From Candidatus Woesearchaeota archaeon (GTDB lineage: Archaea > Nanobdellota > Nanobdellia > Pacearchaeales > GW2011-AR1): a stretch of DNA of 29,531 nt. Below are positions 2,196-29,531 of this stretch, one piece after another (position 1 is the stretch's first letter; each line of letters opens with the position of its first letter). The notes beneath the pieces are model-generated. The model ran no database searches. It was not told the DNA's origin and worked only from the letters and a program-made list of their open reading frames with translations. The DNA lies in the NCBI GenBank assembly GCA_964493885.1, contig CAZBPV010000001.1, positions 66,189-95,719 of the forward strand. Direction: 5' to 3'. Both the position numbers and the translations under genes were made by a program.

Positions 2196-2250
2196 CTTTT
2201 CGTATATAAAATAATTAAACTCTATTTATAAAGTTTATTCTAATCAATTA

Positions 2251-3090: not shown

Positions 3091-3157
3091 ATATTATAGT
3101 AAAATCGGAATTATAAAAACCTTTTTAAACCACTAAATATAATCTTCTAAGCTTAAA

Positions 3158-3678: not shown

Positions 3679-6255
3679 ATGACAGAAATCTATGAAGTCA
3701 GTGAAAGAAAAGACAGCGACATAGCCGAGATACTGCATCCTCTTGTTAAAGAATGGTTTTTTTCTAAATTCCAGGAGTTTTCTCTTACTCAGAGATACGG
3801 AGTTATGAGTATCTGGGAAAGAAAAGACATCTTGATTTCAGCTCCAACAGGAGGAACAAAAACACTTACAGCTTTCCTATCTATTCTTAATTATCTTATT
3901 ATGCTTGCAGAAAAAAACGAACTTGAAGATAAAATCTATGCGGTTTACACTTCTCCATTAAAAGCTCTTACAAATGATATTCATAAAAATTTAGTTGAGC
4001 CTCTTCAGGAAATTTATGAACTTGCAGAAAAAAAGAAAATAAAACTTCAAAAAATTCGTGTTGGACTTAGAACAGGAGACACAACAACTTCTGAAAGAGC
4101 TAAAATGGCAAAAAATCCTCCGCATATATTTATTACAACTCCAGAATCTCTCGCAATAATACTAACAACAAAAAAATTTGTAGATAATCTAAAGTATCTT
4201 GAGTTTTGCATTGTTGATGAGATTCACGCTCTTGATAATAAAAGAGGAACTTACCTAAGCCTGAGTCTTGAAAGACTTAATGAAGTAAGTAATATCTATC
4301 CTGTTAAAATAGGATTATCAGCAACTATTGAACCACTAGATGAAGTTGCCAAGTTTCTTACAGGGATAGATGATGAAAGAAGAGTTGGAATAGCAAATGT
4401 GCCTCTAAATAAAAAAATAAATATCTCTGTTTTAACTCCTGTTGAAGATTTAATTGAAGGAGAAGGAATAAATGATAAATTATACTCTCTTCTTGATAAA
4501 TTAATCAAAGAGCATAAAACCACTTTAATTTTTACAAACACTCGTTCAGCAACAGAAAGAGTTGTAAATCATCTTAAGGAAAAATTTCCAACAGAATACG
4601 GAGATGATAATATTGCAGCTCATCACTCTTCTTTAAGCAAGACTCATAGATTTGATATAGAAGAGAGATTGCGAGACGGCAAATTAAAAGTTGTTGTCTG
4701 TTCAACTTCTTTAGAACTTGGAATTGATATTGGATATATTGATTTAGTAATAATGATAGGAAGTCCAAAATCTTCAGCAAGAGCTCTTCAAAGAATAGGG
4801 AGAGCCGGGCACAGGCTTCACGAGACTGCTAAAGGAGTTTTTATTGTAATGGATAGAGATGATTTAGTTGAGTGCAGTGTAATACAAAAAGAAATGTTTG
4901 AAAGAAAAATAAATAAAATAAGATTTCCTAAAAATGCTTTAGATGTTCTTTCTCAGCAAATTTACGGAATGGCTATTTACAAAATCTGGAATATTGAAGA
5001 GATGTTTTCATTAATTAAAAAAAGCTATTGTTATAATGCCTTGTCAAGAAGTGATTTCCTGGATGTTATAAGTTATCTTTCAGGAGAATACTTGCTTGAA
5101 AAAAATTATGTTTACGGAAAAATTTGGTATGATAAGGAAAACAGTCAGATTGGAAAAAAGGGAAAAATGGCGCGAGTTCTTTACATGACTAATATTGGAA
5201 CAATTCCTGAAGAATCTTTTGTGACAGTTAAACTTGCCCCAAGCCAAGAGCCAGTCGGAGCAATTGATGAAACTTTCCTTGGAAGAATGAAAAAAGGAGA
5301 TGTTTTTGTTTTAGGAGGGAAAAAATATATGTATCTTTATACTCGTGGCATGAATCTTTATGTAAGAGGAGATATTCAGCGTGCTCCAACAATCCCCTCG
5401 TGGTTTTCAGAGATGCTCCCACTAAGCTTTGATTCTGCTATTGAAGTAAATAAATTCAGGACTTTTTTAAAAGAAAGAATTGAATCAAAACAAAAAAAAC
5501 ACGAGATTCTTCAGTTTATCTCAGATTATCTATATGTAAATCAAGGAACAGCTAAAGCAATTTATGATTACTTTATTGAACAGGCTAATTTTCTTGAAAT
5601 CCCAGATTCAAAAACCATCTTAATTGAAAGATACAAATCTGATAAGAATTATCTTATATTCCATAGTATGTATGGAAGAAGAGTTAATGATGCCTTGTCA
5701 CGAGCAATTGCATATCTTCTAGCAACTACTAAAAAGCGTGATGTTGAGATTGGAATAAATGATAATGGGTTCTTTTTAGCAGGAGCAAAAATAAATCTTG
5801 AAGCTGTTCTAAACAAATTAAAAACAATAGATTTGCAAAAAACTCTCAAGGAAGCAATAGACAGAACAGATGTATTAGCAAGAAGATTCAGGCACTGTGC
5901 TACACGTTCTCTAATGATTTTAAGAAGCTATAAAGGAAGGAGCAAGACAGTTGGAAAACAGCAGATGAAATCTCATTTCCTGATGTCAGCACTAAGAAAA
6001 ATAACAAATGAATTTCCTATTTTAAGAGAAGCTAGAAGAGAGGTTTTAGAGGATTTAATGGATATAGAAAATGCAAAAAAAGTCTTGGAATTAATTAAGC
6101 AAGGAAAAATTAAGGTAAAAGTTAAGGATACTATTCTTCCTTCTCCATTTGCATTGAATTTAATTATACAGGGGCAGGCTGACTTGATTAAAATAGAGGA
6201 TAAACAGGCATTTTTAAAGAGAATGTATGAACTGCATGTTAAGGCAATATCTTAG
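3679..6255 (+). CDS. lhr: Lhr-type (Lhr-core) superfamily 2 ATP-dependent DNA helicase
   Basis: 858 aa. Motif I is APTGGTKT, motif II is VDEIH (DExH) and motif VI is QRIGRAGHR. The N-terminal FxLTxxQ element and a long C-terminal winged-helix/DEAD-associated region (..ARRFRHCATRSLMILR..) are typical of Lhr. Confidence 0.9.
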   Translation: MTEIYEVSERKDSDIAEILHPLVKEWFFSKFQEFSLTQRYGVMSIWERKDILISAPTGGTKTLTAFLSILNYLIMLAEKNELEDKIYAVYTSPLKALTNDIHKNLVEPLQEIYELAEKKKIKLQKIRVGLRTGDTTTSERAKMAKNPPHIFITTPESLAIILTTKKFVDNLKYLEFCIVDEIHALDNKRGTYLSLSLERLNEVSNIYPVKIGLSATIEPLDEVAKFLTGIDDERRVGIANVPLNKKINISVLTPVEDLIEGEGINDKLYSLLDKLIKEHKTTLIFTNTRSATERVVNHLKEKFPTEYGDDNIAAHHSSLSKTHRFDIEERLRDGKLKVVVCSTSLELGIDIGYIDLVIMIGSPKSSARALQRIGRAGHRLHETAKGVFIVMDRDDLVECSVIQKEMFERKINKIRFPKNALDVLSQQIYGMAIYKIWNIEEMFSLIKKSYCYNALSRSDFLDVISYLSGEYLLEKNYVYGKIWYDKENSQIGKKGKMARVLYMTNIGTIPEESFVTVKLAPSQEPVGAIDETFLGRMKKGDVFVLGGKKYMYLYTRGMNLYVRGDIQRAPTIPSWFSEMLPLSFDSAIEVNKFRTFLKERIESKQKKHEILQFISDYLYVNQGTAKAIYDYFIEQANFLEIPDSKTILIERYKSDKNYLIFHSMYGRRVNDALSRAIAYLLATTKKRDVEIGINDNGFFLAGAKINLEAVLNKLKTIDLQKTLKEAIDRTDVLARRFRHCATRSLMILRSYKGRSKTVGKQQMKSHFLMSALRKITNEFPILREARREVLEDLMDIENAKKVLELIKQGKIKVKVKDTILPSPFALNLIIQGQADLIKIEDKQAFLKRMYELHVKAIS

Positions 6256-11538: not shown

Positions 11539-12465
11539 TTATCTCTTTTTTCTCTTTTGTAGTCCCCCTTTGATTTCTTTTTTATACTGCTTTACTAAAA
11601 ATTCTAACATTGGTTTTATATCATGAAATTGAGAGTAAACTTGAAGCGCTTTGTAGTATCTCTGCCTATCTTCTAGATAAATATTAATTGGAGGATAGTT
11701 ATTCCTAATTAAAATATAATTTAATAACAATCTTCCGACTCTTCCATTGCCATCTTGAAAAGGGTGTATATGTTCAAATTGATTGTGCATTATTGTAGCC
11801 AATATTAAAGGATTAAATTTAGCCTTGTTTTCTTTATACCAAACAACTAATTCATTTAACGCATTATTTAGTTTATTTATAGGAGTTCCAATATGAATTA
11901 TTTCTCCATACGAGTTCTTTATAACTACCTGAACACCCCTAAACTTACCGGCAAATGATTTGGATTTCTCAAAACATAACTTATGCAGTTTAAGAAGAAA
12001 ATCAAGATTAATTTGCTCATTGGTATCTCGAATAAATTTTATTGCCCCTGCAACTCCCAAGGTTTCAAGCTCTTCCGCATCATTGGTTTTTGGTTTATCT
12101 TTTAATATTTCTTTAACTTCATTTAGTTCTACAGTTGAACCCTCAATTGCATTTGTGTTATAGACAAATTCCTCTGTAAATTTCTTCCAATCAGTGTTAT
12201 ACAAGTGAATTACATTAATTTCAGAGATTTTATTTAATCTTTCAATTTCTTTTGGAGTAAGCTCAAAATCAAAAACCTTTGTGTTATTTGCGTTTATTTG
12301 CTCAAGAATAAACTCTTTTGTATCTTCCTTTCTTTTTATTAATTCATTCTCAGATAAATCAACCCCGAGATACTTTCTAATTTTCTTAACCTTGCCCTTT
12401 TCTCTATAAGAGTGAGCAAGATAATACTTTACCTTCTTGCCTTCTTTTTTTTGTTCAATAAACAT
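11539..12465 (-). CDS. fic: Fic-domain protein (putative AMP-transferase) with an internal inhibitory motif
   Basis: Canonical Fic motif HPFQDGNGRVGR. An upstream (S/T)xxxE(G/N) inhibitory-helix motif is present as TNAIEG. 308 aa with an ATG start. Confidence 0.9.
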   Translation of the reverse strand: MFIEQKKEGKKVKYYLAHSYREKGKVKKIRKYLGVDLSENELIKRKEDTKEFILEQINANNTKVFDFELTPKEIERLNKISEINVIHLYNTDWKKFTEEFVYNTNAIEGSTVELNEVKEILKDKPKTNDAEELETLGVAGAIKFIRDTNEQINLDFLLKLHKLCFEKSKSFAGKFRGVQVVIKNSYGEIIHIGTPINKLNNALNELVVWYKENKAKFNPLILATIMHNQFEHIHPFQDGNGRVGRLLLNYILIRNNYPPINIYLEDRQRYYKALQVYSQFHDIKPMLEFLVKQYKKEIKGGLQKRKKR

Positions 12466-12662: not shown

Positions 12663-12908
12663 TCATTGTTTCTTTTTATGATAAAAGTCTAACAAGATTA
12701 TTTTATCTTCTTGTTTTAGGTAAGTATAAGATAATCTAAATGGTTTGAGATATAACTCTTTTGTGCCCTTTCTAACATTTCTCATGGGTTTTCCTATTTC
12801 TGGATTATTGATTATCTTAACTATTAATTTCATTAATCGCTCTTTATAATTTGAGTCTAATTTACTGAATATTTTACTGAAGTTTGGATCATAATCAAGC
12901 TTCACCAT
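12663..12908 (-). CDS. RelE/ParE-family type II toxin
   Basis: 81 aa. It shows the ..NPEIGKPMRNVRKGTKELYLKPFRLSYTY....IILLDFYHKK pattern typical of RelE/ParE. It overlaps the upstream antitoxin gene by 7 nt (ATGGTGA). Confidence 0.8.
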   Translation of the reverse strand: MVKLDYDPNFSKIFSKLDSNYKERLMKLIVKIINNPEIGKPMRNVRKGTKELYLKPFRLSYTYLKQEDKIILLDFYHKKKQ

Positions 12909-13168
12909 TTTTTCATTTCTTTTAAGAAATCTTCAGAATCCATACTAATAAATTCTCCTCTTTCAAATTTTTTCCAAGCTTCTTCAGTTCTTTTGGCAAA
13001 ATCTAAATCTTCTTTAAGATTCTCATCCATATCACTAGCTTTTTTGAGAATTAATTTATCTCCTCCTTGAATAACTAGTATTTTTTCTCCTTCCTTAAAA
13101 TTTTGCCTCATTTCTTGAGGAATTACTATTTGTCCTTTAGAACTCATTCTTGTTATATTTATATCCAT
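12902..13168 (-). CDS. AbrB/SpoVT/MazE-type antitoxin
   Basis: The N-terminal SSKGQIVIPQEMRQNFKEGEKILV is a SpoVT-AbrB swapped-hairpin signature. The C-terminal half is acidic, and the gene is translationally coupled to the toxin. Confidence 0.8.
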   Translation of the reverse strand: MDINITRMSSKGQIVIPQEMRQNFKEGEKILVIQGGDKLILKKASDMDENLKEDLDFAKRTEEAWKKFERGEFISMDSEDFLKEMKKW

Positions 13169-14228: not shown

Positions 14229-14352
14229 TGAGCCTACACGGATTTGAACCGTGGACCCCCGCCTCTCTTAGACTTCTCTAAAAGATTCAGCAACCCTAAT
14301 GAATTGCAGTCATATAAGAGCGGTGCTCTAAACCAGGCTGAGCTATAGGCTC
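14229..14352 (-). tRNA. tRNA-Ile (anticodon UAU) with a 48-nt intron at the canonical 37/38 position. Exons 14313-14352 and 14229-14264; intron 14265-14312.
   Basis: Manual fold: acceptor GAGCCTA/TAGGCTC, D stem GCTC/GAGC, anticodon stem CCGCT/GGCGG, loop C-U-UAU-A-A after splicing, T arm CACGG-TTCAAAT-CCGTG. The intron forms an exact hBHBh' motif. The 4-bp helix is CTTA(32-35):TAAG(intron 43-46). It is flanked by the 3-nt bulges T36-A37-i1 and i47-i48-A38, each containing a splice site. The outer helix is GACT(i2-5):AGTC(i39-42). Confidence 0.85.
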
Positions 14353-15439: not shown

Positions 15440-16180
15440 TTAAACACTAATTTTTGCCTCTTCCCAAAGAATTTCAAAGTATCTTTTGTATGCATTTGCA
15501 ATTGCTTGATTTTCTATTGTAATAGTAAATATAGGCTCTTCCCAAAAATTTAAAAGAACAATATTTCCGCATATTAAAGTGGTGATTGTTGTATCAAAAA
15601 AAGAAGGAAGGTATCTTGCTTCAGTATATTCTAAATTATTAAGGTATTTTATTCTTTTATCTGCATTTTTATTATAAATATGCTTCATAATTATTTTTTT
15701 AGATATTCTTATCTTATGAAAATCTTCAATAAACCCTCCAATAACATCACTTACATCTTTTGGAATCCCATATACATAAATTATTTCATTTTTTTCCAGC
15801 AAGTTATTAAGAATTACCCTAAATGATTTAATTCCTTCAGACATTGTTACCCTTCTTTTTTCACTTGACTTAGTGTGGATTTTTTCTATTTCTGGAATAA
15901 TATTTTTTAAGTCATATTCTTTTTGTTTAAGATAATTTAATAGATTATTTGGAGTAATAGGATAAAATATTTTTCTATTGTCTTCAATGCTTTGACTCAC
16001 AATTCCCTTTTTTATCATTTTATCAAGTGTATCATAAACATTTGGACGATGAATTTTAGTTCTATTTGCAATCTCGTGAGCAGAAGAATGCCCTGCCCTG
16101 ATTAAATCAAGATAAATGATTATTTCATTTTTATGCAATCCGATTGATTCCAGTGTTTCTATTATTTTTTGTTCATCCAT
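15440..16180 (-). CDS. TrmB-family transcriptional regulator
   Basis: N-terminal TrmB wHTH pattern LESIGLHKNEIIIYLDLIRAGHSSAHEIANRTKIHRPNVYDTLDKMIKKGIV, followed by a C-terminal effector-type domain. The start overlaps the upstream gene's stop by 8 nt. Confidence 0.85.
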   Translation of the reverse strand: MDEQKIIETLESIGLHKNEIIIYLDLIRAGHSSAHEIANRTKIHRPNVYDTLDKMIKKGIVSQSIEDNRKIFYPITPNNLLNYLKQKEYDLKNIIPEIEKIHTKSSEKRRVTMSEGIKSFRVILNNLLEKNEIIYVYGIPKDVSDVIGGFIEDFHKIRISKKIIMKHIYNKNADKRIKYLNNLEYTEARYLPSFFDTTITTLICGNIVLLNFWEEPIFTITIENQAIANAYKRYFEILWEEAKISV

Positions 16181-17153
16181 TTTGTTTTAGGAATTTTTTT
16201 ACTAAATTTAGTTGTCTTTTAGAATATTTATCTTTTTGCTTTTTTGCTCTTTCTTTTTCCCAGTCATCTAGTTCTGGAATTTCTGCTGCTTTTACTTTTA
16301 TACTCTGTTTAGTATAATCTAATTTAACTGGATGAGCAGTGAAATAATCTCCATTATATATACTCCAACAGGATCTTGTTCTCTGTCTTTTATTTGATAT
16401 GTCTTCTGTTAATTCATGAAAACCAAAAATAGCTTCCATATTTCCTAGAGATTTAAATGGCTCAGCAGTATATTTTTTGCAGTCTCTTGCCCATCTTGCT
16501 TGCTTTGCTGTGACTTTATCTCTAAAATGCTGATATTCTGGCAGAGGTTTTCCATCTATTTTTGCACTAGAGAATAAAAAGAGAGGATCCTTCTGGGCTC
16601 CTAAAACATCCATCTGAACTTTGTTTTCTTGTAATCTAATTCCAAGTGCATCTGCTAAGAATTTACTATGTTGTATTCCCCTAGTTTGATTGGCTACATT
16701 TCCAATTAATTGATCTACTGGGATTCCTGTTTGACGTGCAAGTTCTAAAAGGTATTCTACAGGAGTTGAGCCCATTATAACTAATCCTTGATAATTTCGT
16801 GCTATTTCTTGTAATATAGGATATATTTTTTCTGCTTGTTCTAAAAATTCTTTTGCATCTGACTTAAAGCTTATTGGACGTTCTTGAGTTGATGTTGCAA
16901 TAAGAAGCATGTTTGGAGATTGTTTTAAGACCCCATCTAGAGTTTTATGTGTAACAAAATCTTCTTTATTATATCTTCCAAGCACACATCCCATATTTTT
17001 GTAAGTTTCTTGGAGTCTTTTTTCTTTACTTCTAGCATAAAATGGGCTGTATGCATCTACTCTTCCAAGAGATTTATTATCAGAATCAATGCAGTGCAAT
17101 CCTAAAAATCCTAATCCAATCACCCCTAGTGTTGGTAGATTGTCTTGTTCCAT
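16173..17153 (-). CDS. Divergent LDH/MDH-fold Rossmann protein with catalytic residues replaced (probable non-catalytic paralog)
   Basis: 326 aa with GxGxxG as VIGLGFLG. Landmarks aligned by eye to L-LDH/MDH are STPVE (for TNPVD), GIPVDQLIG, NQTRG (Asp168 to Gln) and LGAQKD (His195 to Gln). It is a paralog of the next gene. Confidence 0.55.
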   Translation of the reverse strand: MEQDNLPTLGVIGLGFLGLHCIDSDNKSLGRVDAYSPFYARSKEKRLQETYKNMGCVLGRYNKEDFVTHKTLDGVLKQSPNMLLIATSTQERPISFKSDAKEFLEQAEKIYPILQEIARNYQGLVIMGSTPVEYLLELARQTGIPVDQLIGNVANQTRGIQHSKFLADALGIRLQENKVQMDVLGAQKDPLFLFSSAKIDGKPLPEYQHFRDKVTAKQARWARDCKKYTAEPFKSLGNMEAIFGFHELTEDISNKRQRTRSCWSIYNGDYFTAHPVKLDYTKQSIKVKAAEIPELDDWEKERAKKQKDKYSKRQLNLVKKFLKQNG

Positions 17154-17162
17154 TTTTATTAA

Positions 17163-18599
17163 TTATCTTTGCCAATTTTCTGTTTGACTTATTATTGCTC
17201 TTAAATCTGTATTTAATCCATTTGGTCCTAGAAGTATTTCTTTATTTTCTGTTAAATCTGTAATTTTGCATATTCCTTTGACTTTTACATCCACTCTTCC
17301 ATTTCCGTCTCTAGAATCTTCAAGAACAAATTCTGCTGGAACACTTAGTAATCCTGCATAAATAGGGTATCTTGAATATCTTTGTAAATTTGAAATATCT
17401 TCTAGACACTCTTTTACTCTTTGAGGAACTCCTCTGTAATCATGCTGATATTTATTAGCAGATTGCACAACTGCTAAACCTACTTTTTGCGCTTTTGTAC
17501 AAATTTCTTTTTGCAATTCTTCTTTTTTTAATTGAGGAAATGTTTCAAACAACGGCACGAATACATTATTTACTCTAACAAAAGATTCTGCATAAAGAGG
17601 AACTCCTCCTTTCATGTGATCCCCGATTGCTATTGTAAGAACATCTTCTTCTTTTATTGCAGGATTAAATTCTTTTAATTTTTCATATAATTCTGCTCTA
17701 TGCCTTATAGTATCTGGTGGGAAAGAAGTAAGCTGTTCTCTAGGAATTCCTAATCTTGTTGCATATTTAATAAAATGTCCATTTGGATTAGATTGTATCG
17801 CAATTAATCCAGGATAATTATTAGCAATTGCTGCCAATAAAACCGGCTCTATTTTTGGAAGCCCGGTTTTAAATAACATTTCTGTTAATTCTGTTCTTTC
17901 ATTAAAAGCATCATAATCAATTCCATGTTTTCCAGTTGTAATTAATAAAACATCTGGTTTTTCTTGAATTAATGCTTCAAGATTAGTTCCGTGAGTAATT
18001 ATCTTTTCTCTTTGCTCACCTGTTAAATCTAATCCTGTTAGTAAGGGAGAGTAATCCCCGTTTACAAATTGAGTATAAACATGAGCAGCCTGAATATTAT
18101 TGCTTCTTGCAGCTTTTTCAAGAATTCCTAATCCTAGTGTGCCTAATCCTACAATACCTATGCTTAGTGGCTGAAATAATTTTCCTTCTTTTCTTAATTC
18201 ACAAACCTTCCTAATAACTTCCCCCTCATCAAAATTTTCGTCATGGTTTTTTGGAAGCCATCCAGAAAATTGCTCATATCCAGGTTCAGTCATTGTATCT
18301 TTATAAGGTTCTTTATTTTGAGTCGTAAGAATTTTTCCTCCTTTTATCCCTTTTTCAGCCAAAACTTTTGCCATCTTAGAGGCTAGTTGCCTATTGTTTG
18401 GGTCTTCATGAACAAAATACATATGTCCCCTTAATAATCTAGAATTGCTACGTAATGCTTCTGGATGAATTACATCATCAACAGTAACTATATCAAAATT
18501 TATACCAGAATCTTCTTTAACTTTTCCTTTAAGTATTCTTTTTAGATTCTCTTTTCCTGCTTGAGTTTCATTTATTATTATTACTTGAGGCTTTCTCAT
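17163..18599 (-). CDS. LDH/MDH-fold 2-hydroxyacid-dehydrogenase-like protein with an N-terminal extension of ~150 aa and unknown family
   Basis: 478 aa. Residues from about 155 to the end carry IVGLGTLG (GxGxxG), LLITTGK....ERTEL (Arg109 region), QSNPNG (TNPVD), GIPREQL, DTIRHR (Asp168/Arg171) and IGDHMKG (His195). The N-terminal part alternates strand and helix: QVIIIN, FDIVTV, HMYFVHEDPNNRQLASKMAKVLAEKGI. Confidence 0.6.
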   Translation of the reverse strand: MRKPQVIIINETQAGKENLKRILKGKVKEDSGINFDIVTVDDVIHPEALRSNSRLLRGHMYFVHEDPNNRQLASKMAKVLAEKGIKGGKILTTQNKEPYKDTMTEPGYEQFSGWLPKNHDENFDEGEVIRKVCELRKEGKLFQPLSIGIVGLGTLGLGILEKAARSNNIQAAHVYTQFVNGDYSPLLTGLDLTGEQREKIITHGTNLEALIQEKPDVLLITTGKHGIDYDAFNERTELTEMLFKTGLPKIEPVLLAAIANNYPGLIAIQSNPNGHFIKYATRLGIPREQLTSFPPDTIRHRAELYEKLKEFNPAIKEEDVLTIAIGDHMKGGVPLYAESFVRVNNVFVPLFETFPQLKKEELQKEICTKAQKVGLAVVQSANKYQHDYRGVPQRVKECLEDISNLQRYSRYPIYAGLLSVPAEFVLEDSRDGNGRVDVKVKGICKITDLTENKEILLGPNGLNTDLRAIISQTENWQR

Positions 18600-18697
18600 T
18601 TTGTCTATTTACCTCTCCAAAATGGTTACATTTTATAGTATTTAAAGGTTTTTGATTTTTGAATTATATTTAAATACATGGATTTTTTTGTTTAAAT

Positions 18698-19879
18698 ATG
18701 TTAATTGGATTAGTCGGAAAGCCCTCGGTTGGAAAGAGTACTTTTTTCAAAGCAGCTACACTTGCAGAAGTAGAAATAGCAGCATATCCTTTTACAACTA
18801 TAAAACCAAATCATGGAGTTGGGTATGTAAAAGTAGATTGCATTGATAAAGAGTTCAAAGTTCAGTGTAATCCCAGTCATGGATTTTGCATTGATGGAAA
18901 AAGATTTGTTCCTGTTGATTTAATGGATGTTGCTGGATTAGTTCCTGGAGCTTCAGAAGGAAAAGGATTGGGAAATAGATTTTTAGATGATTTAAGAGAA
19001 GCAGATGTTTTTATTCACATAGTAGATGCTTCTGGAACAACAGATATTGAAGGAAAACAGACTGAAGGGTATAATCCGTGCGATGATGTGAGATTTCTTG
19101 AAGATGAGTTAAATAAGTGGTTTTTTAATATATTAATTAAGGCTTGGAAGAGTTTTGCAAGAAAATCAGAGATTGAGGATATTAATTTTGCAGAAGCTGT
19201 GGCTAAGCAATTCTCAGGTTTAAAGATAAATGATGAACAAGTTAAGTCGGTTTTGCTTAAATTAAATTTGCCTGACAAACCAAGTAAATGGAATGAAGAG
19301 GAATTAATGCAGTTTGCTGCTACATTAAGAGATAAAAGTAAGCCTATGATTATTGCAGCTAATAAGGCTGACCATCCAGATGCTCAAAAGAATATTAGGA
19401 AAATGCAGGATGAATTTCCAGAGCTTATGATATATCCTTGCTCAGCTGATTCAGAACTTGCGTTACGAGAAGCAGCTAAAGCTGGATTGATTGAATATAT
19501 CCCTGGAGGGAAAGACTTTAAAATTATTGGTAGTGTAACAGATAAACAAAAACAAGCTCTTGATAATATTAAAAAAAACGTCCTTGATGTGTATGAAGGA
19601 ACAGGTGTTCAGGAGATTCTTAATCTTGCTGTGTTTGATTTATTAAAATATCTTGCAATATTTCCTGCAGGAGCAAATAAGCTTACAGATAGCAAAGGAA
19701 ATATACTTCCTGATTGCTTTTTGCTTCCGCCTGGAAGCACTGCCTTGGATTTTGCTTATTTTCTTCATACTGATTTTGGAAAGAATTTTATTAAGGCAAT
19801 TGATGCAAGAACAAAAAGAGCTTTAGGAAAAGATTACAAGCTGAAAAACAGGGATGCACTTGAAATTGTTGCTAGGTAA
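18698..19879 (+). CDS. ychF: Obg-family GTPase/ATPase of the YchF/OLA1 type with a C-terminal TGS-like domain
   Basis: G1 is [12 protein letters not shown], the G2 region is [12 protein letters not shown]3 is DVAGLV and G4 is NKAD. 393 aa with an ATG start. Confidence 0.85.
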
Positions 19880-19900: not shown

Positions 19901-20713
19901 CTAAAAGTTTATTTTTAATCCAACTCTTCCGGTTACTTCATCTTTAACATTGCTATTACTATCTGCAAAATTATGGCCGTATGTTGCACCTGCTGTAAGA
20001 CTGGCTTTATCATTAAATTTATATTCTGCTTGAAGTCCTACTTCTAAACTAATTATATTCTCTTTTTTTGAATCATTAACATCATAACCGCCTACTCTTC
20101 CTGTAATTTTGTTATCCTCTAGTGTTAAGGCTGGACCTCCACTTACATTTAACGTAAATTTGTCTCCTGGAATAAAATCATATCCTGCTCCAAGTCTTAA
20201 TTTTGTTGCTTTGCTTTTTAAGTCAAGATAGCCATTTGAAGTAGTTTCACTTTCATCCATTTCACCATACTCTGCTCCAGCATAAAATTCACTTCTTCTG
20301 TCCTTTGCCCCTACTTTTACTCCCATAACTGGCATTGGGTTTGGATTATCTTCACTATTTAATGCAAATTTCATCCCAAAGTAAGGTTCTGCATATGCTT
20401 TCCATTCAGCGGATTCAGTTTGAATTTGTCTTTGACTTAATCTGTTTTCAGAATTTGATGTTTTGTTTAATTGAGCAGTTTCTGAAATTGGATATTTTGG
20501 AGATTCTTGAATAAGAGTTTTAGTTTCTTCTTTTCTTTCAAGTTTATTATCTTTCCACTCATACCCAATTGGAGGTTGAACTGTTCCTACAGACATTGTT
20601 CTTTGAGATGGGATTGTTGGGGTTTCTGTTTTATGACAAGATGTAGTTGTTACACTACCTAATCCAAACAATCCTACTATTCCTAATTTTGCTAAAAGTC
20701 CTAATTTTGCCAT
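19901..20713 (-). CDS. Exported protein with an N-terminal hydrophobic anchor plus Cys and a C-terminal ~165-aa beta-barrel-like domain ending in Phe
   Basis: The N-terminus is MAKLGLLAKLGIVGLFGLGSVTTTSC. The C-terminal domain has alternating hydrophobic beta-strand patterns (KLRLGAGYDF, FTLNVSGGPALTL, ISLEVGLQAEYKF, ASLTAGATYGHNF, VTGRVGLKINF*). It is about 55% identical by eye to the C-terminus of the upstream gene product. Confidence 0.6.
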   Translation of the reverse strand: MAKLGLLAKLGIVGLFGLGSVTTTSCHKTETPTIPSQRTMSVGTVQPPIGYEWKDNKLERKEETKTLIQESPKYPISETAQLNKTSNSENRLSQRQIQTESAEWKAYAEPYFGMKFALNSEDNPNPMPVMGVKVGAKDRRSEFYAGAEYGEMDESETTSNGYLDLKSKATKLRLGAGYDFIPGDKFTLNVSGGPALTLEDNKITGRVGGYDVNDSKKENIISLEVGLQAEYKFNDKASLTAGATYGHNFADSNSNVKDEVTGRVGLKINF

Positions 20714-20714
20714 T

Positions 20715-22781
20715 TTAGAATTTTACAGTAACTCCTGCTCTTGCTGTTAAGTCATCGGTTACATTAGAATTATCATCTGCAAAGTTATGTCCATATACTG
20801 CACCTGCTGTAAGGCTTACTCTATTATTTAATCTGTACTCTAAACCTGCTCCAACTTCTGCTCCAAATATTGTTTCTTTTTTAGAATCATCAACATCATA
20901 GTCCCTTACTCTTCCAGTGATTTTATTTTCTTCTCTTGTTACTCTTAAACCAGCTGAAACATTTCCAACTAATTTTCTTTCTTTATTTGAGCTTAATTTT
21001 CCTCCAACCATGAATGTTGTTGCAGTGCTTTTTAAATCAAGATATCCTTCTGGAGTTGTTTCATTTGCATCCATTTCCCCTCTTTCAATTCCTAAGTAAA
21101 TTGAGCCATTTTCCTTTTCTACTCCAATTTCAACACCAAAAACAGGCATTGGGTCTGGAGTATCTTCTGAACTTAATGCATATTTCATTCCTGCATAAGG
21201 AGCTATCTTTAAAGTGTATGGATTTGGAGCTCTTAGAGGCAATGGATTTCTTGGTTGTTCTACAGGTTTTTGGGTTGATTTCCCAGAAGCAGGAGCTAGT
21301 TGTATTGGAGTTTTTTGAAATTCTGGAGCTGGTTGAATTGGATTATAAATAATTGGTTCTGGTTTAACCTTTTCAACTACTGCAGACTCTTTGTAATCAT
21401 CTGTAAGTTCTTGATAATCTTTTCTAAGAGTTTCAACCTCTTTTCTTAACTTTTCTGTATTATCAATATTTATTGATACCACCTTAGTTAATAGTCTTAT
21501 ATCTTCTCTATTTCTTATTATTCCTTTATCCGCCATATCTCCAATATCTTTTGGTTTTTCTGGTTCTTTATAATCCTCAACAACATCCTTAGGTTCTTTA
21601 ACTGGATCTACTCCAGGTTCTAATTTAACTTCTTTAACTGGCTTTGGTTCTGAGATTACAACAATTTCTTCTAGTTGATTTATATTTGTTCTTTCTTCTT
21701 TTACTTGAACTGCTGTGTATTCAGGTTGAACTGCAGTTTTTAGGGATTTAACTTCTTCATTAGGAAAAAGACTATATGTTATTATCCCAGCTAATCCAAT
21801 TCCTGCTCCAACAAGGCCCCATTTGAATCTTTTCTTAGGGTCATTCCATATATATTTTATTGTTGTTATTGGATTTTTTAAAGATTCTATGACTTTGCTT
21901 GCTAAACTGGGTTTTTTGAATTCTCTGGCGTGATGTTTTGGTTTAAGGGGGTCAAATCCAGATTTATTAGGGACAGCATTACGAGGGAGTCCAACTTCAT
22001 CTGTTAAATCATCACCAAAGATTTCCTGTCTTGTTACTGATATTCCTGGAATAATAATTCCATAGTTGTTTTTTAATACACTATCAATATTCCTTATTGC
22101 CTCTTCTTTTGATTGTGAATTCATTCGATTTACTTCATTAAATACTTTTACTACTTCAGTTTCTATAGGCACAATAGAACCGTCTCCTTTTTTTTCAAAT
22201 AATTCTGATTGGTGGTATTGTGATGTTGGAGATGCATGAGCTCTTATCATTCTTTCTGTTACCATATTGAGGAGGTTCATACATTCGTTTGGAGGCATTA
22301 TAGGTCTTGGATTATTAATAACAACCTTTTTTTTATTTAACCCCTTATTCTTAAGATACTCTCTTGCTCTTTTTTTTAGACTTTTACCCATTAGTTCTGT
22401 TATGTCTTCTCTACTCTGTGGTGTTGCCCTAATCACATCTTCCTCAACTTGTTGAAACACTACTCTTTGACCTTCCTCATTTAATTCTCCCCATAATGCT
22501 CTCTTTTGTTGATATAATGCTTCAATATTTAAGTCCACCCTTTGAGTAATAGTTGTATTTTTCAAATTTTTTGCAAAAACAATTGGATTATTTTGGGCCA
22601 TCTCCCACATAATGTTTTTTGTCATTGCTTCTGCATAAAGTTTTTCTGAATACTTTTCAAAATATTCTTCACCAGGCCTGATTTCTTCTTGGTTTGGGTT
22701 TTGAGGTGTTTGGGTATCCATTTTAGTATTAATCACAGTATCTGTAGCATGTTCCCCATGAACAGATTTGTATGCAGTCAT
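20715..22781 (-). CDS. Bitopic membrane protein: cytoplasmic N-domain, one TM helix, a Pro/Glu/Lys-rich and coiled-coil linker, then a C-terminal beta-barrel-like domain
   Basis: The TM helix is WGLVGAGIGLAGIITYSLF. The linker contains EPKPVKEVKLEPGVDPVKEPKDVVEDYKEPEKPKD. The C-terminus reads ...VSLTAGAVYGHNFADDNSNVTDDLTARAGVTVKF*. An alternative start at 22721 (MDTQTPQ) would remove the 53-nt overlap with the upstream gene. Confidence 0.6.
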   Translation of the reverse strand: MTAYKSVHGEHATDTVINTKMDTQTPQNPNQEEIRPGEEYFEKYSEKLYAEAMTKNIMWEMAQNNPIVFAKNLKNTTITQRVDLNIEALYQQKRALWGELNEEGQRVVFQQVEEDVIRATPQSREDITELMGKSLKKRAREYLKNKGLNKKKVVINNPRPIMPPNECMNLLNMVTERMIRAHASPTSQYHQSELFEKKGDGSIVPIETEVVKVFNEVNRMNSQSKEEAIRNIDSVLKNNYGIIIPGISVTRQEIFGDDLTDEVGLPRNAVPNKSGFDPLKPKHHAREFKKPSLASKVIESLKNPITTIKYIWNDPKKRFKWGLVGAGIGLAGIITYSLFPNEEVKSLKTAVQPEYTAVQVKEERTNINQLEEIVVISEPKPVKEVKLEPGVDPVKEPKDVVEDYKEPEKPKDIGDMADKGIIRNREDIRLLTKVVSINIDNTEKLRKEVETLRKDYQELTDDYKESAVVEKVKPEPIIYNPIQPAPEFQKTPIQLAPASGKSTQKPVEQPRNPLPLRAPNPYTLKIAPYAGMKYALSSEDTPDPMPVFGVEIGVEKENGSIYLGIERGEMDANETTPEGYLDLKSTATTFMVGGKLSSNKERKLVGNVSAGLRVTREENKITGRVRDYDVDDSKKETIFGAEVGAGLEYRLNNRVSLTAGAVYGHNFADDNSNVTDDLTARAGVTVKF

Positions 22782-24318: not shown

Positions 24319-27300
24319 ATGGTTTTTAAGAGGTATATCAAAAGAGGTAACAAAGTTTACGGTCCTTATATTTATCATAATGTGAAACATAATGGAAAAG
24401 TTGTTTCTACTTATCTTGGCAGGCATAAACCTGAAGAAGAAAATAATTCTCTATCTATAAACAAAGGTAGTGTAATAAAAAAGGAGGGGAAGTTAACTAC
24501 AAATTTCCCTTATAAAAAACTTCTCCTCTTTTTATTTATTTCAGTTGTTGCAGTTGCTTTTTTGTTTTTATTAGTTAGATTTGATTTTGGTTTGACTGGT
24601 AGTGCAACTCTTTCAATTGATGATATTTATAGAGATGGAGATTTTCTTAAAGGAGATTTGCAGTTTATTTTACATCAGTCAGAACTAATGCCTGCAAATA
24701 CACAAGTGATAATAAATAGTGCTGGTTTTGAATATATTTATAATTTAAGTGATTTGATTTCTGAAACTCCTGTAGAAGGAGAGTATTATCTTAAAAACAC
24801 AGAAATTTCCGGAAGTGGATTAGGTTACTCTGCAGATGCAGAAAGATTTCCAATTGTTAATTTTGTTTTGGGAATTTTTGCTGCTGCAGAAGATGACAGC
24901 GGAAAAACTTATACTCTTCCTGTTGAACCAATAAATGAAACAGAAGAGGAAAATGAAACACTTCCTGCAGAAGAAAATCCAACTGAAGAAAGTTCTGAAA
25001 ACCAGACTCCAGAAGAGCCAGTTATTGAAAATGAAACTCCAACCCGAACAATAACAGGGCAATTTACTTCTTTAATTTCTGGATTTCTTGGAATCTTTCC
25101 AAGGCTTGTAGGACATGCTTCTTTAGAATTAGTTGATGAAATAGAAGGAAATGTTAGTGCAAATTCTTCTTTTGAATATCCTCTTTCAAGTGAAGAGACT
25201 GCACAGATTATTTCCTCTGAACATAATATTAGTTTAATAATTGAAAATAATCAAGCAATTGTCACAACTGAGTATATAGGAGATGAAATCAAAACACTTG
25301 AAATAAGTATAGATGACTTAAATATTTCTGCTGCAGATGGAGACTTAGTTATTAGTTTTGTTTATAACAATGCTGAGCTAATGACTGCAAGCAAAGAAAT
25401 AACTATTGTTAGTGAAACTAGCAATGAAACTAATGAAACTCTTTATACTCTTCCCTTTGAGCCACTGATACCTGAAGAAATTCCTATAGAACAACTAGAA
25501 AATGTTACTGGAAATGAATCTATAAAAGGAATTAATATTAATTTAGTTGATGGAGGGGGGAATAGAATAGGTAACTATACTATTATTAATAGGGAAGATT
25601 CAAAATTGGATGTTTTAATAAATAATGTTAAGATAAATGGGACAAGAGAGATATTTTCAAACACACCTTTAATTGATATTTCTATTTCTGGTGTTAAGAA
25701 TGTTAGTAAAAATGTTACTATGATGTTAAACGAGGTAAATGATTCTATTCTTAGAACAGCAGTTTTAGCATCTGAGCCTTTTGAAGTAGATAATGTTACT
25801 ATTACTCTAGCTAAGAAAGGAAATGTTAATGTGATTATGAAGTGTGAGAAATTTAGTGTTGAGAATCTAACTTGTACTAATTGGAGTAGAATAGATATAC
25901 CTTTTGTAGATAATGGGGAGAGTATAACTTTTACAGTTACAGAGTTTAGTGGTTATGCTGGTGGGGAGATAGGAATAATCAATGTTCAGTCATATCCTGT
26001 TGTGGGAGGTAATTGGACTGTTGAATTTAATACCACCGGAGTAGAGAACTTAACAATCACTGCTGTTGATGATACTACTTGGAGTAATGAGACAGAAGAT
26101 GAAGATTTGAAATTTTTAGAGATTAGATGTGGAAGTGAGACTCTAGAGTATGAATGGGTTAATAATTCAGTGTTTATTGAGGATTATAATTGTTCTGAGA
26201 ATGGTTATGAAATTAGCAAAGTTATTACTTATGGAAAACACCATTTAAGATTTGATTATGGAAATGATACTGCTTATGCACATAATAATGCTGGTTATGT
26301 TTGGCAGTCTGTTGAATATGGGACTCTTGGGGGTCCTAGTGCTTGGAATTTTATTATGGGGTATAAGTTTAAGCCAATTGAAAATGGACAAATATCTGAA
26401 CTATGTGGTTATTTTAATGGAACAAAGACTATAAAAATCTGGAATGCTACTAGGTCTGAATTAGCATCAGCATCTGTTACTTCTTTAGGAGGAAATCCAC
26501 TTGGTAGTTGGATGTGTACTCCAATAACTCCACTTAGTGTTATAGCAGGAACTGAGTATTATGTTGGTGTTTGCTTAGTTGGAAGTGGGGGTTATTATCG
26601 AGAACTTTCACCAACCTTGTTGCCTATCGCTTCTAATGGTGTTAATATTACTTACAGCTTTTATTATAGTACAACAGGGTGTACTTTTGCAGGTGATCCA
26701 ACTCCAGATACTAATTATATGTATGGCATGGCGGATATTTATTTTAATGCGACTGCAACTCCAATACAGTCTGCTACAATATATGCAGAGGATGTTACTT
26801 ATGGGACTTGTTATTTTAATCCCACCACCACCAAAGCTGATAATTATATTGCTGCTGATTTTGATACTTATAGGGGGGCTGCTAAATTTAATATTAGCTC
26901 TTTGCCAGCAGATGCCATTATAACAAAAGTAGAATTTTACGCTGCACCTTATTCCTGCTCAGCTAATCATGATTTAGATGTATTTGATCTTATAAATGAT
27001 CCAGTTACTACTACTGGAAGCGGTGTTCTTTGGAATGATGCTAGAGATGGTACACAGTATGTTGTTGATAGTTATGCTTTAAGAACTCCTGCAACAGGAG
27101 GAACTTGCGTTGCAGCAACTTATGGAGGAGTATATTTGGGAGTGGATGCAGCAGCAGATTTACAGAGTAGAATTTCTTCTCCTGGTTGGTTTGCACTTGG
27201 TTTTAGTGCTAATAGTACAGCATATGGTTATTGGTATGGACATACTACAGCTTATGAGCCATATATTAAGGTTGAATATACCCTTCCTCCCAATTTATGT

Positions 27301-29531
27301 GGAGAGACTATCACAGAAAGTACTGAGTTGGAGGGGGATATGAGTTGTACTGGAGATGGTTTAATTATAGGAGCGGATAATATTACAATAGACTGCGATG
27401 GGCACTGGATAAATAACAGTGCTGCTAATGAAGTTGGAATAAATATTTCTAGCAAAAGCAATATCACAATTAAAAATTGTAATATCAAAAAGTATGAAAA
27501 TGGTATATATGTTACAAATTCAACAAACATCAATATAACAAATACATCATTTACAGGACAAGAAGGAGTTGGCATAGTTTTTTACGCTAATTTTTCAACA
27601 ATTGATAATTATAGGATTGTTCTTCCTGCACCTGTAAGAGGAATTCTTGTTAATGGAATTAATAATACATTAAATAATATTTATGCTGATTCTGATACAG
27701 TTGGAAATAATTATCTTATCTCATTTGCAGCTAGCAACAGCACGATAAATAATTCAAGAATCACAAACTGCGTTTATGATGGTAATACAATAAATGTTGG
27801 TGGTACAGGAAATATAATAAATAATGTCACTGTGTTTAATACCTCAGCTCTAAGTTCAACTGAGATTGTATCTTCATCATCAAAAAATGGTAGTATAACA
27901 AACAATAATTTTTCATCAAATGGAAATTATGCTCTTCGTTTGAGTTCTGCGAATTATAGTGTTATCTCAAACAATATAATAAGTAATAATAAAAACTATG
28001 GAGTGTATATTTCAGGAAGCAATTATAGCAATTTTACACAAAACACAATAACTAATAACACTAATTATGGAATTTATATTGTGGGCAGTCCAAGTCCTGC
28101 TTCAAATAATAATTTATTTTATAATAATTTTTTCAATAATACAAATAATATTTTTGATGCAGCTTCAAATACCAACAATTGGAATACAACAAAAACATCT
28201 GGAACAAATATAATTAGTGGAAGTTATATTGGTGGAAATTATTGGAGTGATTATAATGGAAGTGATCCAAATTTTGATGGAATTGGAGATACTGAGATTC
28301 CATGGAAAGGAACATCTTCTATAACAAATGGCGGAGATTACTTGCCTTTGACTTATACTTGTGGAGTTACTATTACCCAAAACCTCACATTAACAGAAGA
28401 TATGAGTTGTACTGGGACTGCATTAATTATAGGAGCAGATAATATAACTCTGGATTGTGATGGACATTCTATAACCGGAACTAGCACAGGGAATGGAATT
28501 TCTAATAATGGATATGATAATATTACTATAAAAAACTGTAATATATCTAATTTTAGTACTGGGATAATCTTAACTAATGCGGTTTATAATAATACTATTT
28601 TTAATAATACTTTAAGAAATATGGGTAGCTATGGTGTTAGTCTCTATGTTGGAGGATCAGTTAATGTTTCAAATAATATTTCATCTAATTCTTTTAATAA
28701 TTCTGCTGCATCCATATACCTATCAATAGCATATGGAAATGTTATTAAAAATAATAATATTTCAAATACAGGAATCTATGATGGGATTACCCTTTCAGCT
28801 AGTAATTATAATAATGTAACTAATAATACAATACAAAATGTTCAAGGAGATAGGGGGATTTTTAATACTAATTCAAATTATACTTTGATTAGTGGAAATA
28901 CCTTAAGAAATTGCACAGGAGATTATGGAGGAATTGTATTTTATGGTTATAGTAATAAAGTTACAGTTAAGAATAACATACTAATAGATAATACCTATGG
29001 GTTATATAATTCTCTACAAGCTTCAAATAATTTGATTATCTATAATAATCTCTTTGATAATACCAATCAAGTTAGTGTTTCAGGTACTGGAAATGTTTGG
29101 AATACAACTTATAATTGCACATCTGGAACAAATATAATAGGAGAGCCTTGTATAGGTGGAAATTATTGGGAGGATTATGATGGAAGTGATGATGGAAGTG
29201 GAAGTTATCCTTATAATATTTCAATGGATGGAATTGGAGATACTAACATTCCTTATAATGTAAGTATAACAACTGGAGGAGATTATTTGCCATTATCTAA
29301 AATATGTGGAAGAAATATAACTGAAAATACTAATATAGATAAAAATATATTTTGTAACACAACTGCTCTTCTTATCAATGCAGATAATGTTATATTAGAT
29401 TGTGCAAATTTCTGGATAAATGGTTCAGACCCAGACCCTTCAGCGAATTTGGTATATGGTGTTTATGCTTACAACGCTACAAATATCACTATAAAGAATT
29501 GTAATGTTGCGAATTGGAGAAATTTTGGAAT
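24319..29531 (+). CDS. Giant membrane-anchored surface protein with tandem right-handed parallel beta-helix (NosD/PbH1-like) modules. It runs off the right edge (at least 1737 aa) and is missing from the supplied ORF track.
   Basis: The ATG at 24319 is immediately preceded by an in-frame TGA. I read all 1737 codons to 29531 and found no stop. Elements in order are: the basic N-terminus MVFKRYIKRGNKVYGPYIYHNVKHNGKVVSTYLG; a TM helix at 24520-24576; an acidic ETEEENETLPAEENPTEESSENQTPEEP linker; Ig-like segments; and a DUF4082-like segment (MGYKFKPIENGQISELCGYFNGTKTIKIWNA...GTEYYVGV). These are followed by at least 3 modules that each start CGxxITE..L..DMSCTG..LIIGADNIT.DCDGH and end GGNYW.DY.GSD...DGIGDT.IP......GGDYLPL. 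N-x-S/T sequons are extremely dense. Confidence 0.85.
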   Translation, partial: MVFKRYIKRGNKVYGPYIYHNVKHNGKVVSTYLGRHKPEEENNSLSINKGSVIKKEGKLTTNFPYKKLLLFLFISVVAVAFLFLLVRFDFGLTGSATLSIDDIYRDGDFLKGDLQFILHQSELMPANTQVIINSAGFEYIYNLSDLISETPVEGEYYLKNTEISGSGLGYSADAERFPIVNFVLGIFAAAEDDSGKTYTLPVEPINETEEENETLPAEENPTEESSENQTPEEPVIENETPTRTITGQFTSLISGFLGIFPRLVGHASLELVDEIEGNVSANSSFEYPLSSEETAQIISSEHNISLIIENNQAIVTTEYIGDEIKTLEISIDDLNISAADGDLVISFVYNNAELMTASKEITIVSETSNETNETLYTLPFEPLIPEEIPIEQLENVTGNESIKGININLVDGGGNRIGNYTIINREDSKLDVLINNVKINGTREIFSNTPLIDISISGVKNVSKNVTMMLNEVNDSILRTAVLASEPFEVDNVTITLAKKGNVNVIMKCEKFSVENLTCTNWSRIDIPFVDNGESITFTVTEFSGYAGGEIGIINVQSYPVVGGNWTVEFNTTGVENLTITAVDDTTWSNETEDEDLKFLEIRCGSETLEYEWVNNSVFIEDYNCSENGYEISKVITYGKHHLRFDYGNDTAYAHNNAGYVWQSVEYGTLGGPSAWNFIMGYKFKPIENGQISELCGYFNGTKTIKIWNATRSELASASVTSLGGNPLGSWMCTPITPLSVIAGTEYYVGVCLVGSGGYYRELSPTLLPIASNGVNITYSFYYSTTGCTFAGDPTPDTNYMYGMADIYFNATATPIQSATIYAEDVTYGTCYFNPTTTKADNYIAADFDTYRGAAKFNISSLPADAIITKVEFYAAPYSCSANHDLDVFDLINDPVTTTGSGVLWNDARDGTQYVVDSYALRTPATGGTCVAATYGGVYLGVDAAADLQSRISSPGWFALGFSANSTAYGYWYGHTTAYEPYIKVEYTLPPNLCGETITESTELEGDMSCTGDGLIIGADNITIDCDGHWINNSAANEVGINISSKSNITIKNCNIKKYENGIYVTNSTNINITNTSFTGQEGVGIVFYANFSTIDNYRIVLPAPVRGILVNGINNTLNNIYADSDTVGNNYLISFAASNSTINNSRITNCVYDGNTINVGGTGNIINNVTVFNTSALSSTEIVSSSSKNGSITNNNFSSNGNYALRLSSANYSVISNNIISNNKNYGVYISGSNYSNFTQNTITNNTNYGIYIVGSPSPASNNNLFYNNFFNNTNNIFDAASNTNNWNTTKTSGTNIISGSYIGGNYWSDYNGSDPNFDGIGDTEIPWKGTSSITNGGDYLPLTYTCGVTITQNLTLTEDMSCTGTALIIGADNITLDCDGHSITGTSTGNGISNNGYDNITIKNCNISNFSTGIILTNAVYNNTIFNNTLRNMGSYGVSLYVGGSVNVSNNISSNSFNNSAASIYLSIAYGNVIKNNNISNTGIYDGITLSASNYNNVTNNTIQNVQGDRGIFNTNSNYTLISGNTLRNCTGDYGGIVFYGYSNKVTVKNNILIDNTYGLYNSLQASNNLIIYNNLFDNTNQVSVSGTGNVWNTTYNCTSGTNIIGEPCIGGNYWEDYDGSDDGSGSYPYNISMDGIGDTNIPYNVSITTGGDYLPLSKICGRNITENTNIDKNIFCNTTALLINADNVILDCANFWINGSDPDPSANLVYGVYAYNATNITIKNCNVANWRNFG
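27298..29531 (+). repeat. Intragenic tandem modules of the giant protein (27298-28369, 28370-29304, 29305 to beyond 29531)
   Basis: The module starts share nucleotide-level identity, for example gatatgagttgtactgg and ttaattataggagc.gataatat. The module ends share ggtggaaattattgg...gatggaattggagatact. Confidence 0.8.

Follow-up and report, generated by a model that had tools for sequence, protein, structure and literature searches.

In this study, we analysed a stretch of 29,531 nucleotides from a Candidatus Woesearchaeota archaeon (contig CAZBPV010000001.1, positions 66,189 to 95,719), referred to below as the window, and within it three tightly packed open reading frames (ORFs) on the minus strand, which encode proteins of 478, 326 and 246 amino acids. 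The locus is best explained as a two-gene module of DPANN archaea, in which an oxidoreductase resembling lactate and malate dehydrogenases (LDH and MDH), fused at its N terminus to a domain with the fold of response-regulator receivers (REC), is paired with a short, dedicated regulator of the TrmB family; together with the mechanistic steps set out below, we give this reading a probability of roughly 0.6. The features on which the argument turns are the following.

17163-18599, minus strand: 478-aa ORF, predicted N-terminal receiver fold followed by an LDH/MDH-like module (REC-LDH-like)
18180-18599, minus strand: residues 1-140 of the 478-aa protein, predicted CheY-like receiver fold with the phospho-acceptor set lost
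17163-18179, minus strand: residues 141-478 of the 478-aa protein, predicted divergent oxidoreductase module of the LDH/MDH superfamily
16173-17153, minus strand: 326-aa ORF, REC-less paralog of the dehydrogenase module
15440-16180, minus strand: 246-aa winged-helix regulator of the TrmB family (PF01978 match)
18698-19879, plus strand: 393-aa GTPase of the YchF/YGR210 type, the divergently transcribed neighbour

An earlier annotation of this DNA, made from the letters alone (hereafter the sequence-only reading), had described the three ORFs with the coordinates and strand that we find, had placed the DNA in DPANN, rightly, and had recognized the 8-nt overlap between the stop of the 326-aa ORF and the TrmB start. 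The gap between the 478-aa and 326-aa ORFs, which it gave as 10 nt, measures 9 nt. The tight coupling of the dehydrogenase-like genes to the TrmB gene that it described is thus borne out, and because the spacing is so close, with a 9-nt gap that keeps the frame and an 8-nt overlap, it indicates that the three genes are co-transcribed. Our results also support its view that this is not a standard LDH or MDH locus.

The C-terminal part of the 478-aa protein is, as judged from its predicted structure and from profile alignments, a very divergent and catalytically equipped member of the LDH/MDH superfamily. Scans of the protein with Pfam and NCBIfam returned no family at E values up to 1, Ldh_1_N and Ldh_1_C included, weak Ldh_1 matches being seen only in distant family members, and a phmmer search against the PDB gave nothing above noise. 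The full-length AlphaFold2 (AF2) model, for which 12 homologues were aligned, has a predicted local distance difference test score (pLDDT) of 84 and a predicted template modelling score (pTM) of 0.84. When it was compared with the PDB using Foldseek, the top 50 matches were all L-LDH or MDH structures (E down to 1e-11; TMt 0.6-0.75, around 0.7) and covered the C-terminal ~340 residues. Furthermore, an hhalign comparison of the family profile with ten genuine LDH/MDH sequences, drawn from the tail of the exhaustive profile search described below, gave a probability of 99.4% (E 1.3e-21) and paired N271 with N140, D296 with D168, R299 with R171 and H328 with H195. The GxGxxG loop, which in the 478-aa protein spans G151-G156, was aligned as well. 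The landmarks that the sequence-only reading had picked out by eye (N140, D168, R171 and H195) were therefore correct.

These residues are also conserved within the family. N271, D296, R299 and H328 show no variation in the alignment of 12 members, and in the extended family each is either invariant or conserved to at least 90%. With 62 sequences aligned, R299 and H328 remain invariant and the level for D296, G151, G153, G326 and R235 is 90% or higher; R299 is invariant across 119 sequences as well. Conservation of the catalytic residues over 62-119 sequences argues for real catalysis. R235, which is invariant among the 12 members, is the probable equivalent of R109; the substrate loop is about seven residues longer than in genuine LDH/MDH proteins, and hhalign sets R235 four positions off R109. 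The family has motifs of its own, TSFPPDTxRH and DYRGVP, and at the end of beta-2, where an Asp contacts the NAD ribose, it carries Thr176 (Ser or Thr family-wide), so that the NAD-specific acidic residue is absent.

The N-terminal domain appears to be a degenerate CheY-like receiver, that is, a pseudo-receiver. It had been put forward as novel and as possibly SLOG- or TIR-like, with the proposal that a structure search be run on the N-terminal ~150 residues. When residues 1-140 were modelled alone, AF2 returned a (beta-alpha)5 fold, five strands alternating with helices, at a pLDDT of 91.9, and its best Foldseek matches were mostly REC domains (E 3e-5 to 1e-3, TM 0.6-0.76). ComE (4ml3; E 3e-5, TM 0.70/0.76) is the top example, and others are Sln1, CheB, KdpE, ArlR and RcsB; neither SLOG nor TIR was among the matches. 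The window's domain itself does not match PF00072 at E values up to 10, and a profile built from the N-terminal-domain alignment found no REC among PDB sequences; the assignment is therefore drawn from the fold search, from relatives of the P0012 type (P numbers denote family proteins, L numbers loci) and from the residue pattern. In P0012 the homologous domain matches PF00072 with E 2.7e-6 (28.0 bits, cutoff 30.2) over profile positions 1-100 of 111 and shows the motifs IIDDE, FFIDFFMP, ILITG and LLTKPF. Across the extended family, PF00072 (Response_reg) is matched by 26 of 99 members at E values up to 1e-3, the best being 4.5e-17, and P0021 carries a precomputed Response_reg annotation. The fold is thus not a novel one.

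Many relatives have the acceptor pattern D-D...D...T/S, and the DD/D set is present in P0012, P0016, P0023, P0026 and P0042; the window has N10, E11, H64 and T93 in these columns. T93 is nearly invariant, and K117, which follows the strand at 114-117, is assigned as the receiver Lys by its position in the model. In the clade to which the window belongs the domain would therefore be a pseudo-receiver, which retains the fold together with the Thr and the Lys but no longer has the acidic pocket or the phospho-acceptor. A separate observation concerns P0139 (500 aa), which like P0149 belongs to the extended family found by the exhaustive profile search: its domains stand in reversed order, Ldh_1_N (residues 8-147) coming before Response_reg (residues 407-455). 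This reverse architecture suggests that LDH-like and REC domains have been fused independently more than once.

The second component of the module is the TrmB-family gene. Its product matches PF01978 with E 1.9e-13 (50.5 bits, cutoff 25.6) and PDB entry 3qph with E 8e-8, the latter over residues 6-136 only; the ~110 residues that follow have no match to a model or structure in Pfam, NCBIfam or the PDB, and none to a sugar-binding effector domain. A synteny survey, which the sequence-only reading had proposed as a check, was run on 13 distinct members, namely the window and the loci of P0002, P0004, P0005, P0006, P0007, P0008, P0012, P0157, P0067, P0023, P0021 and P0112. In 12 of these 13 a TrmB gene of 243-247 aa, 43-79% identical to that of the window, lies directly downstream of the REC-LDH-like gene on the same strand; at the P0112 locus, the exception, a TrmB of the same subfamily is found 1.65 kb off on the other strand. 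The link persists where the REC-LDH-like proteins have an identity of just 21-30% (P0067, P0023 and P0021), and it is seen in the wholly different neighbourhood of L021, where YchF is missing. Because TrmB stands directly downstream in 12 of 13 members, even in unrelated neighbourhoods, the conserved module consists of the REC-LDH-like gene and TrmB. The YchF-type GTPase, matched by the Pfam models MMR_HSR1, YGR210-like_G4 and TGS, is kept as a neighbour in the closer relatives only; as it is absent from L016, L019 and L021, it does not belong to the module. In L016, the locus of P0067, the TrmB gene directly downstream of the REC-LDH-like gene (2727-3461, plus strand) is 47% identical to that of the window; a second TrmB-family gene with 25% identity is located ~1 kb further on the opposite strand (4422-5150, minus strand).

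The family is larger than it seemed at first sight. A word-indexed homologue search of 5.8 billion proteins under-reported it at 12-14 proteins, whereas the exhaustive profile search yielded 149 clusters at 50% identity with E values up to 1e-3, and 89 with E values up to 1e-10. Most of the clusters are 440-540 aa long, which is the length of the two-domain architecture. The genome records of members are metagenome-assembled genomes of Nanoarchaeota, Woesearchaeota and Pacearchaeota, and as far as members can be placed the family is confined to DPANN. The sole name given to its members in the sources is 'hypothetical protein', and our literature searches turned up neither an account of a REC-LDH-like protein nor one of its pairing with TrmB, so that the module is apparently undescribed.

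The REC-LDH-like gene is much more divergent than the genes beside it. Among nine loci (36 pairs), YchF proteins have a mean identity of 83% (range 80-93%), TrmB proteins of 69% (60-85%) and REC-LDH-like proteins of 38% (24-60%); the window's own YchF is 82-89% identical across loci. In the most similar YchF pair, L007 and L018 (93%), the REC-LDH-like proteins are just 32% identical. It is possible that deep 'types' of the gene have been sorted or exchanged at one locus, by hidden paralogy or cassette replacement, which would fit the window since it holds two types side by side; alternatively, the REC-LDH-like gene may be one that evolves unusually fast.

The 326-aa protein, which gives the window this two-type character, is by sequence comparison a full-length homologue of the dehydrogenase module that has no receiver. 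It matched no family in Pfam or NCBIfam, and phmmer against the PDB gave a marginal LDH match (3wsv, E 0.007). BLASTP aligned it with the 478-aa protein over the Rossmann part (E 3e-12), and hhalign aligned the family profile with its residues 8-324 at 99.1% (E 6e-19). Its homology to the dehydrogenase part of its neighbour, and with the structural evidence above the LDH/MDH fold of both proteins, had been claimed before and are borne out.

At the catalytic positions, the equivalent of R109 is D, N140 is replaced by T, H195 by Q, D168 by Q (Q or N, depending on gap placement) and R171 by Q beside a two-residue RG insertion (Q or R, again by gap placement). The DYRGVP motif is lost as well; still present are the Gly-rich loop and three motifs shared with its closest clade, RSCWS, PELDDWE and KFLK. 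The claim that Asp168 and His195 are both replaced by Gln thus stands for His195, and for Asp168 the residue reads as Gln or Asn according to where the gap is set. With this pattern the protein would be a member of the fold and not an enzyme of the LDH/MDH type, in line with the proposal that one of the two paralogs is catalytically intact and that the other is without the catalytic residues. A different set of changes is seen in a subgroup of ~520-aa family members (P0052, P0060, P0066 and P0086), where N271 has become Gly and H328 has become Arg and D296 and R299 are kept; as far as the alignment goes, this is a second, independent change of the catalytic centre within the family.

The word-indexed search recovered no homologue of the 326-aa protein except itself, and none of the 23 related loci has a second copy of the gene. 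The sequence-only reading had taken the two paralogs as one operon unit; the survey shows instead that the REC-LDH-like gene and TrmB are kept together and that the 326-aa gene occurs in no relative. Its closest relatives form the P0023/P0024/P0026/P0037 clade of canonical-REC proteins, with 29-35% full-length identity and BLASTP E values down to 7e-43, and P0023 itself occupies the same position, between YchF and TrmB, in its own genome. Identity to the neighbouring 478-aa protein is 23% overall (31% over 102 aa). A neighbour-joining tree, in which the trimming of some sequences was faulty and from which only the placement of the 326-aa protein was used, agrees with the BLAST and identity tables. 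We considered that the gene might be a tandem duplicate of its neighbour and rejected this, as 23% identity to the 478-aa protein compares with 32-35% to the P0023 clade. Co-transfer with TrmB was likewise rejected: the TrmB of the window is nearest to those of L014 and L002 (76-79%), that of L018 being 67% identical. As this TrmB is of the vertical type, the 326-aa gene did not arrive with it. The comparisons point to a lineage-specific extra copy derived from a subclade of the P0023 type.

Whether this extra copy is maintained bears on an alternative that we regard as possible though rather improbable, namely that the 326-aa ORF is a non-functional relic of an ancestral tandem pair, or of a cassette exchange between YchF and TrmB, in an otherwise ordinary module. 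The restriction of the gene to this genome, the loss of all five catalytic residues and of DYRGVP, the lack of its own Shine-Dalgarno sequence and its long branch (identity to its nearest clade is 32-34%, that among the clade's members 38-46%) would all fit a relic, as would the occurrence of different gene types at the same locus despite 80-93% identity of YchF, which is what paralog sorting or replacement would leave behind. However, 326 codons have remained intact in DNA of 31% GC, where a random stop is estimated to occur about every 13 codons, the protein still has its Gly-rich loop and, in its C-terminal part, several motifs specific to the clade, and the placement is precisely that of translational coupling, with an in-frame gap of 9 nt on one side and an 8-nt overlap on the other. 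Because of the intact ORF, the retained motifs and the coupled placement, a maintained protein is slightly favoured. At the junction itself (17154-17165, minus strand) the 478-aa and 326-aa ORFs share a frame and read WQR*LIKM, with one TAA and three sense codons between them; read-through of the TAA would yield a receiver followed by tandem LDH-like modules. A shared frame would arise by chance in one case out of three, and evidence for read-through at this junction was not found.

Upstream of the operon, blocks conserved across eight aligned upstream regions outline a putative promoter and leader.

18611-18648, minus strand: putative promoter and leader of the operon
18638-18648, minus strand: TATA-like CCTTTAAATAC, the second TATA-like box of the region
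18619-18630, minus strand: conserved element TGTAACCATTTT, a possible operator
18611-18618, minus strand: putative Shine-Dalgarno sequence GGAGAGGT
18666-18677: near-palindromic TATA-like element GTATTTAAATAT (ATATTTAAATAT in most relatives), its core invariant in the eight loci

Among the conserved blocks of this region is TGTAAC(C/T)ATTTT. The promoter and operator roles are putative and were assigned from position. The centre of GTATTTAAATAT lies ~26 nt from the YchF start codon, and this distance suggests that the YchF transcript is leaderless.

Taken together, the most likely role of the 478-aa protein is that of a 2-hydroxyacid dehydrogenase that is gated by its receiver and controlled by TrmB, and for it we infer the following scheme. 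The oxidoreductase module would reduce or oxidize a 2-oxo or 2-hydroxy carboxylic acid, since it retains the proton relay of His and Asp, the Arg that binds the carboxylate and the Asn known from L-2-hydroxyacid dehydrogenases; use of NADP(H) or a relaxed cofactor specificity is possible, since Thr176 replaces the NAD-specific Asp. In canonical members, phosphorylation of the receiver Asp would gate activity or oligomerization. In the clade of the window, where the acceptor set reads N10/E11/H64, the pseudo-receiver would be constitutive or would act through binding, independently of phosphorylation. The co-transcribed TrmB probably autoregulates the operon via the conserved promoter-proximal element. 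The 326-aa protein would most likely be a non-catalytic regulatory or structural paralog that is translated by coupling within the operon.

Several points weigh against this reading. A housekeeping enzyme would not usually diverge so far beyond its flanking genes, and a role in signalling or conflict could be the reason. The alignment of the mobile loop around R235 and R109 is ambiguous, the AF2 models were built on shallow alignments of 11-12 sequences, and with no match to an LDH model in Pfam or NCBIfam the substrate cannot be inferred. A histidine kinase is not visible in the window or at the related loci. In addition, the 326-aa gene may simply be decaying, and there is no orthologue with which to gauge purifying selection.

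In a second alternative, the locus is a signalling device: the LDH-fold domain would sense NAD(P)H or a 2-oxoacid and control the short TrmB via the receiver-like domain, as a split one-component regulator, with the 326-aa protein as a decoy or modulator. REC-LDH and TrmB stay together even where members have diverged strongly and neighbourhoods differ, a TrmB of ~245 aa that is matched over residues 6-136 only may need a partner to sense its effector, the REC-LDH-like gene evolves rapidly beside conserved flanks, and receiver domains are typical signalling modules. On the other hand, a pure ligand sensor would not need the full catalytic set, which is (nearly) invariant in the family, and TrmB is far more conserved than its supposed partner, which speaks against tight co-evolution. 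We consider this explanation unlikely. A broader proposal along these lines, to which we likewise give little credence, is that of a DPANN-specific signal-transduction module, in which TrmB would learn of the redox or 2-oxoacid status from the LDH-fold domain, either directly or via the product of its reaction, and the (pseudo-)receiver would serve as a second input; the locus would then be a fast-evolving, type-switching cassette, and the window would show a rare two-type state in which one type is now a non-catalytic modulator. A conflict or defence system triggered by infection or host interaction, with an NAD-linked effector (a role that the sequence-only reading had named as one option, though not for defence), is very improbable. 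Its sole support is the divergence above the flanks together with a Rossmann nucleotide-binding domain. The 478-aa, 326-aa, P0023 and P0012 proteins had no match among the PADLOC and PHROGs families, the catalytic set is that of a 2-hydroxyacid dehydrogenase and not that of an NADase, and the module lies beside housekeeping genes at loci of which most are without hallmarks of mobile elements.

The preferred reading, a TrmB-paired oxidoreductase module, concerns the centre of the window, and other features were recorded around it. Beyond YchF, two minus-strand genes code for proteins that resemble outer-membrane beta-barrels: one of 270 aa (19901-20713), which matches Pfam OMP_b-brl with 33.4 bits (cutoff 28.7) and in addition DUF481 and the autotransporter beta-domain and ends in ...NF, and one of 688 aa (20715-22781), which matches OMP_b-brl with 29.2 bits (cutoff 28.7) as well as the Opacity porin model and has ...KF at its C terminus. 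Similar OMP_b-brl genes are found at the same place in the relatives L007, L009 and L010. Such C-terminal ends are those of bacterial outer-membrane proteins, and beta-barrels of this kind are unusual in archaea. On the other side of the operon, Rfam identifies a second tRNA of 124 nt (14229-14352, minus strand; 52.6 bits) that was missed by ARAGORN and is presumably an intron-containing archaeal tRNA. A Fic/DOC-domain protein (11539-12465, minus strand; PF02661, E 2e-18) and an 88-aa ORF (12902-13168, minus strand), whose N terminus SSKGQIVIPQEMR looks by eye like an antitoxin of the AbrB/SpoVT type, could be toxin-antitoxin components. Finally, long frames run off both ends of the window: one of at least 1737 aa at the 3' end (~24320-29531, plus strand) and one of at least 741 aa at the 5' end (1-2223, minus strand). 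Giant genes of this sort are a typical feature of DPANN archaea.

The genomes of DPANN archaea are tiny and have few recognizable regulators. A census of archaeal two-component systems from 2018 lists few or none in DPANN (PMC5847659). The family delineated here is sizeable and unannotated, with ~150 clusters at 50% identity; in it a receiver and an LDH/MDH-like module are tied to a TrmB regulator of their own, which offers a concrete handle on how fermentative or redox metabolism is coupled to gene regulation in these organisms. The family adds a type of output domain that is absent from the 2018 census and from the literature searched; the words 'dehydrogenase' and 'Rossmann' do not occur in the text of that census, and no LDH/MDH-like output domain is mentioned there (PMC5847659). 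The series from canonical receiver to pseudo-receiver to receiver-less dead enzyme is a natural one in which to study the evolution of regulators and pseudo-enzymes, and the highly divergent middle gene between conserved flanks is an instructive example, from uncultured archaea, of hidden paralogy or cassette replacement.

Each part of the module has relatives among known systems. The L-LDH/MDH enzymes (Pfam Ldh_1_N and Ldh_1_C; for instance the LDH of L. casei, 2zqy, and the apicomplexan MDH, 4plt) share with the 478-aa protein the predicted two-domain fold, the GxGxxG loop and the four catalytic residues. The 478-aa protein differs from them in its identity of 13-20%, the absence of a match to LDH models, Thr176 in place of Asp, the longer substrate loop and motifs of its own, as well as in its fused N-terminal receiver and its linkage to a TrmB gene. 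The TrmB and TrmBL2 regulators of Thermococcales and haloarchaea (3qph, 5bpd) match the window's regulator in the N-terminal winged helix and coiled coil. The latter, however, has 246 aa as against 338 in TrmB (the 3qph chain has 342 residues), lacks a match to the sugar-binding domain, and belongs to a subfamily that accompanies a REC-LDH-like gene at the related loci.

Pseudo-receivers are known from the N-terminal domain of KaiA, from FrzS and from the plant PRR proteins. As in these, the 478-aa protein appears to keep the CheY fold with the phospho-acceptor Asp and the acidic pocket replaced; in contrast to them, its receiver-like domain is joined to an LDH-like enzyme, and one orthologous locus family includes canonical as well as degenerate forms. 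An LDH-fold pseudo-enzyme is likewise known, in the LDH-like domain of eukaryotic UEVLD. The 326-aa protein resembles this type in keeping the fold and the Gly-rich loop without the catalytic His, Asp and Arg, whereas its origin is independent, very recent, lineage-restricted and archaeal, and it sits inside the operon of its intact paralog.

The closest parallel in domain order is found among response regulators with enzymatic output, such as CheB and fusions of REC to metabolic enzymes (PMC5847659), in which an N-terminal REC is likewise followed by an enzyme; many relatives of the 478-aa protein have the DD/D/T(S) set and a PF00072 match in common with them. In contrast, the REC of the window is without a phospho-acceptor, and no histidine kinase is seen nearby. 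Both the LDH/MDH superfamily and response regulators whose output is enzymatic are thus kinds already known, and what is apparently new is their fusion and its pairing with TrmB.

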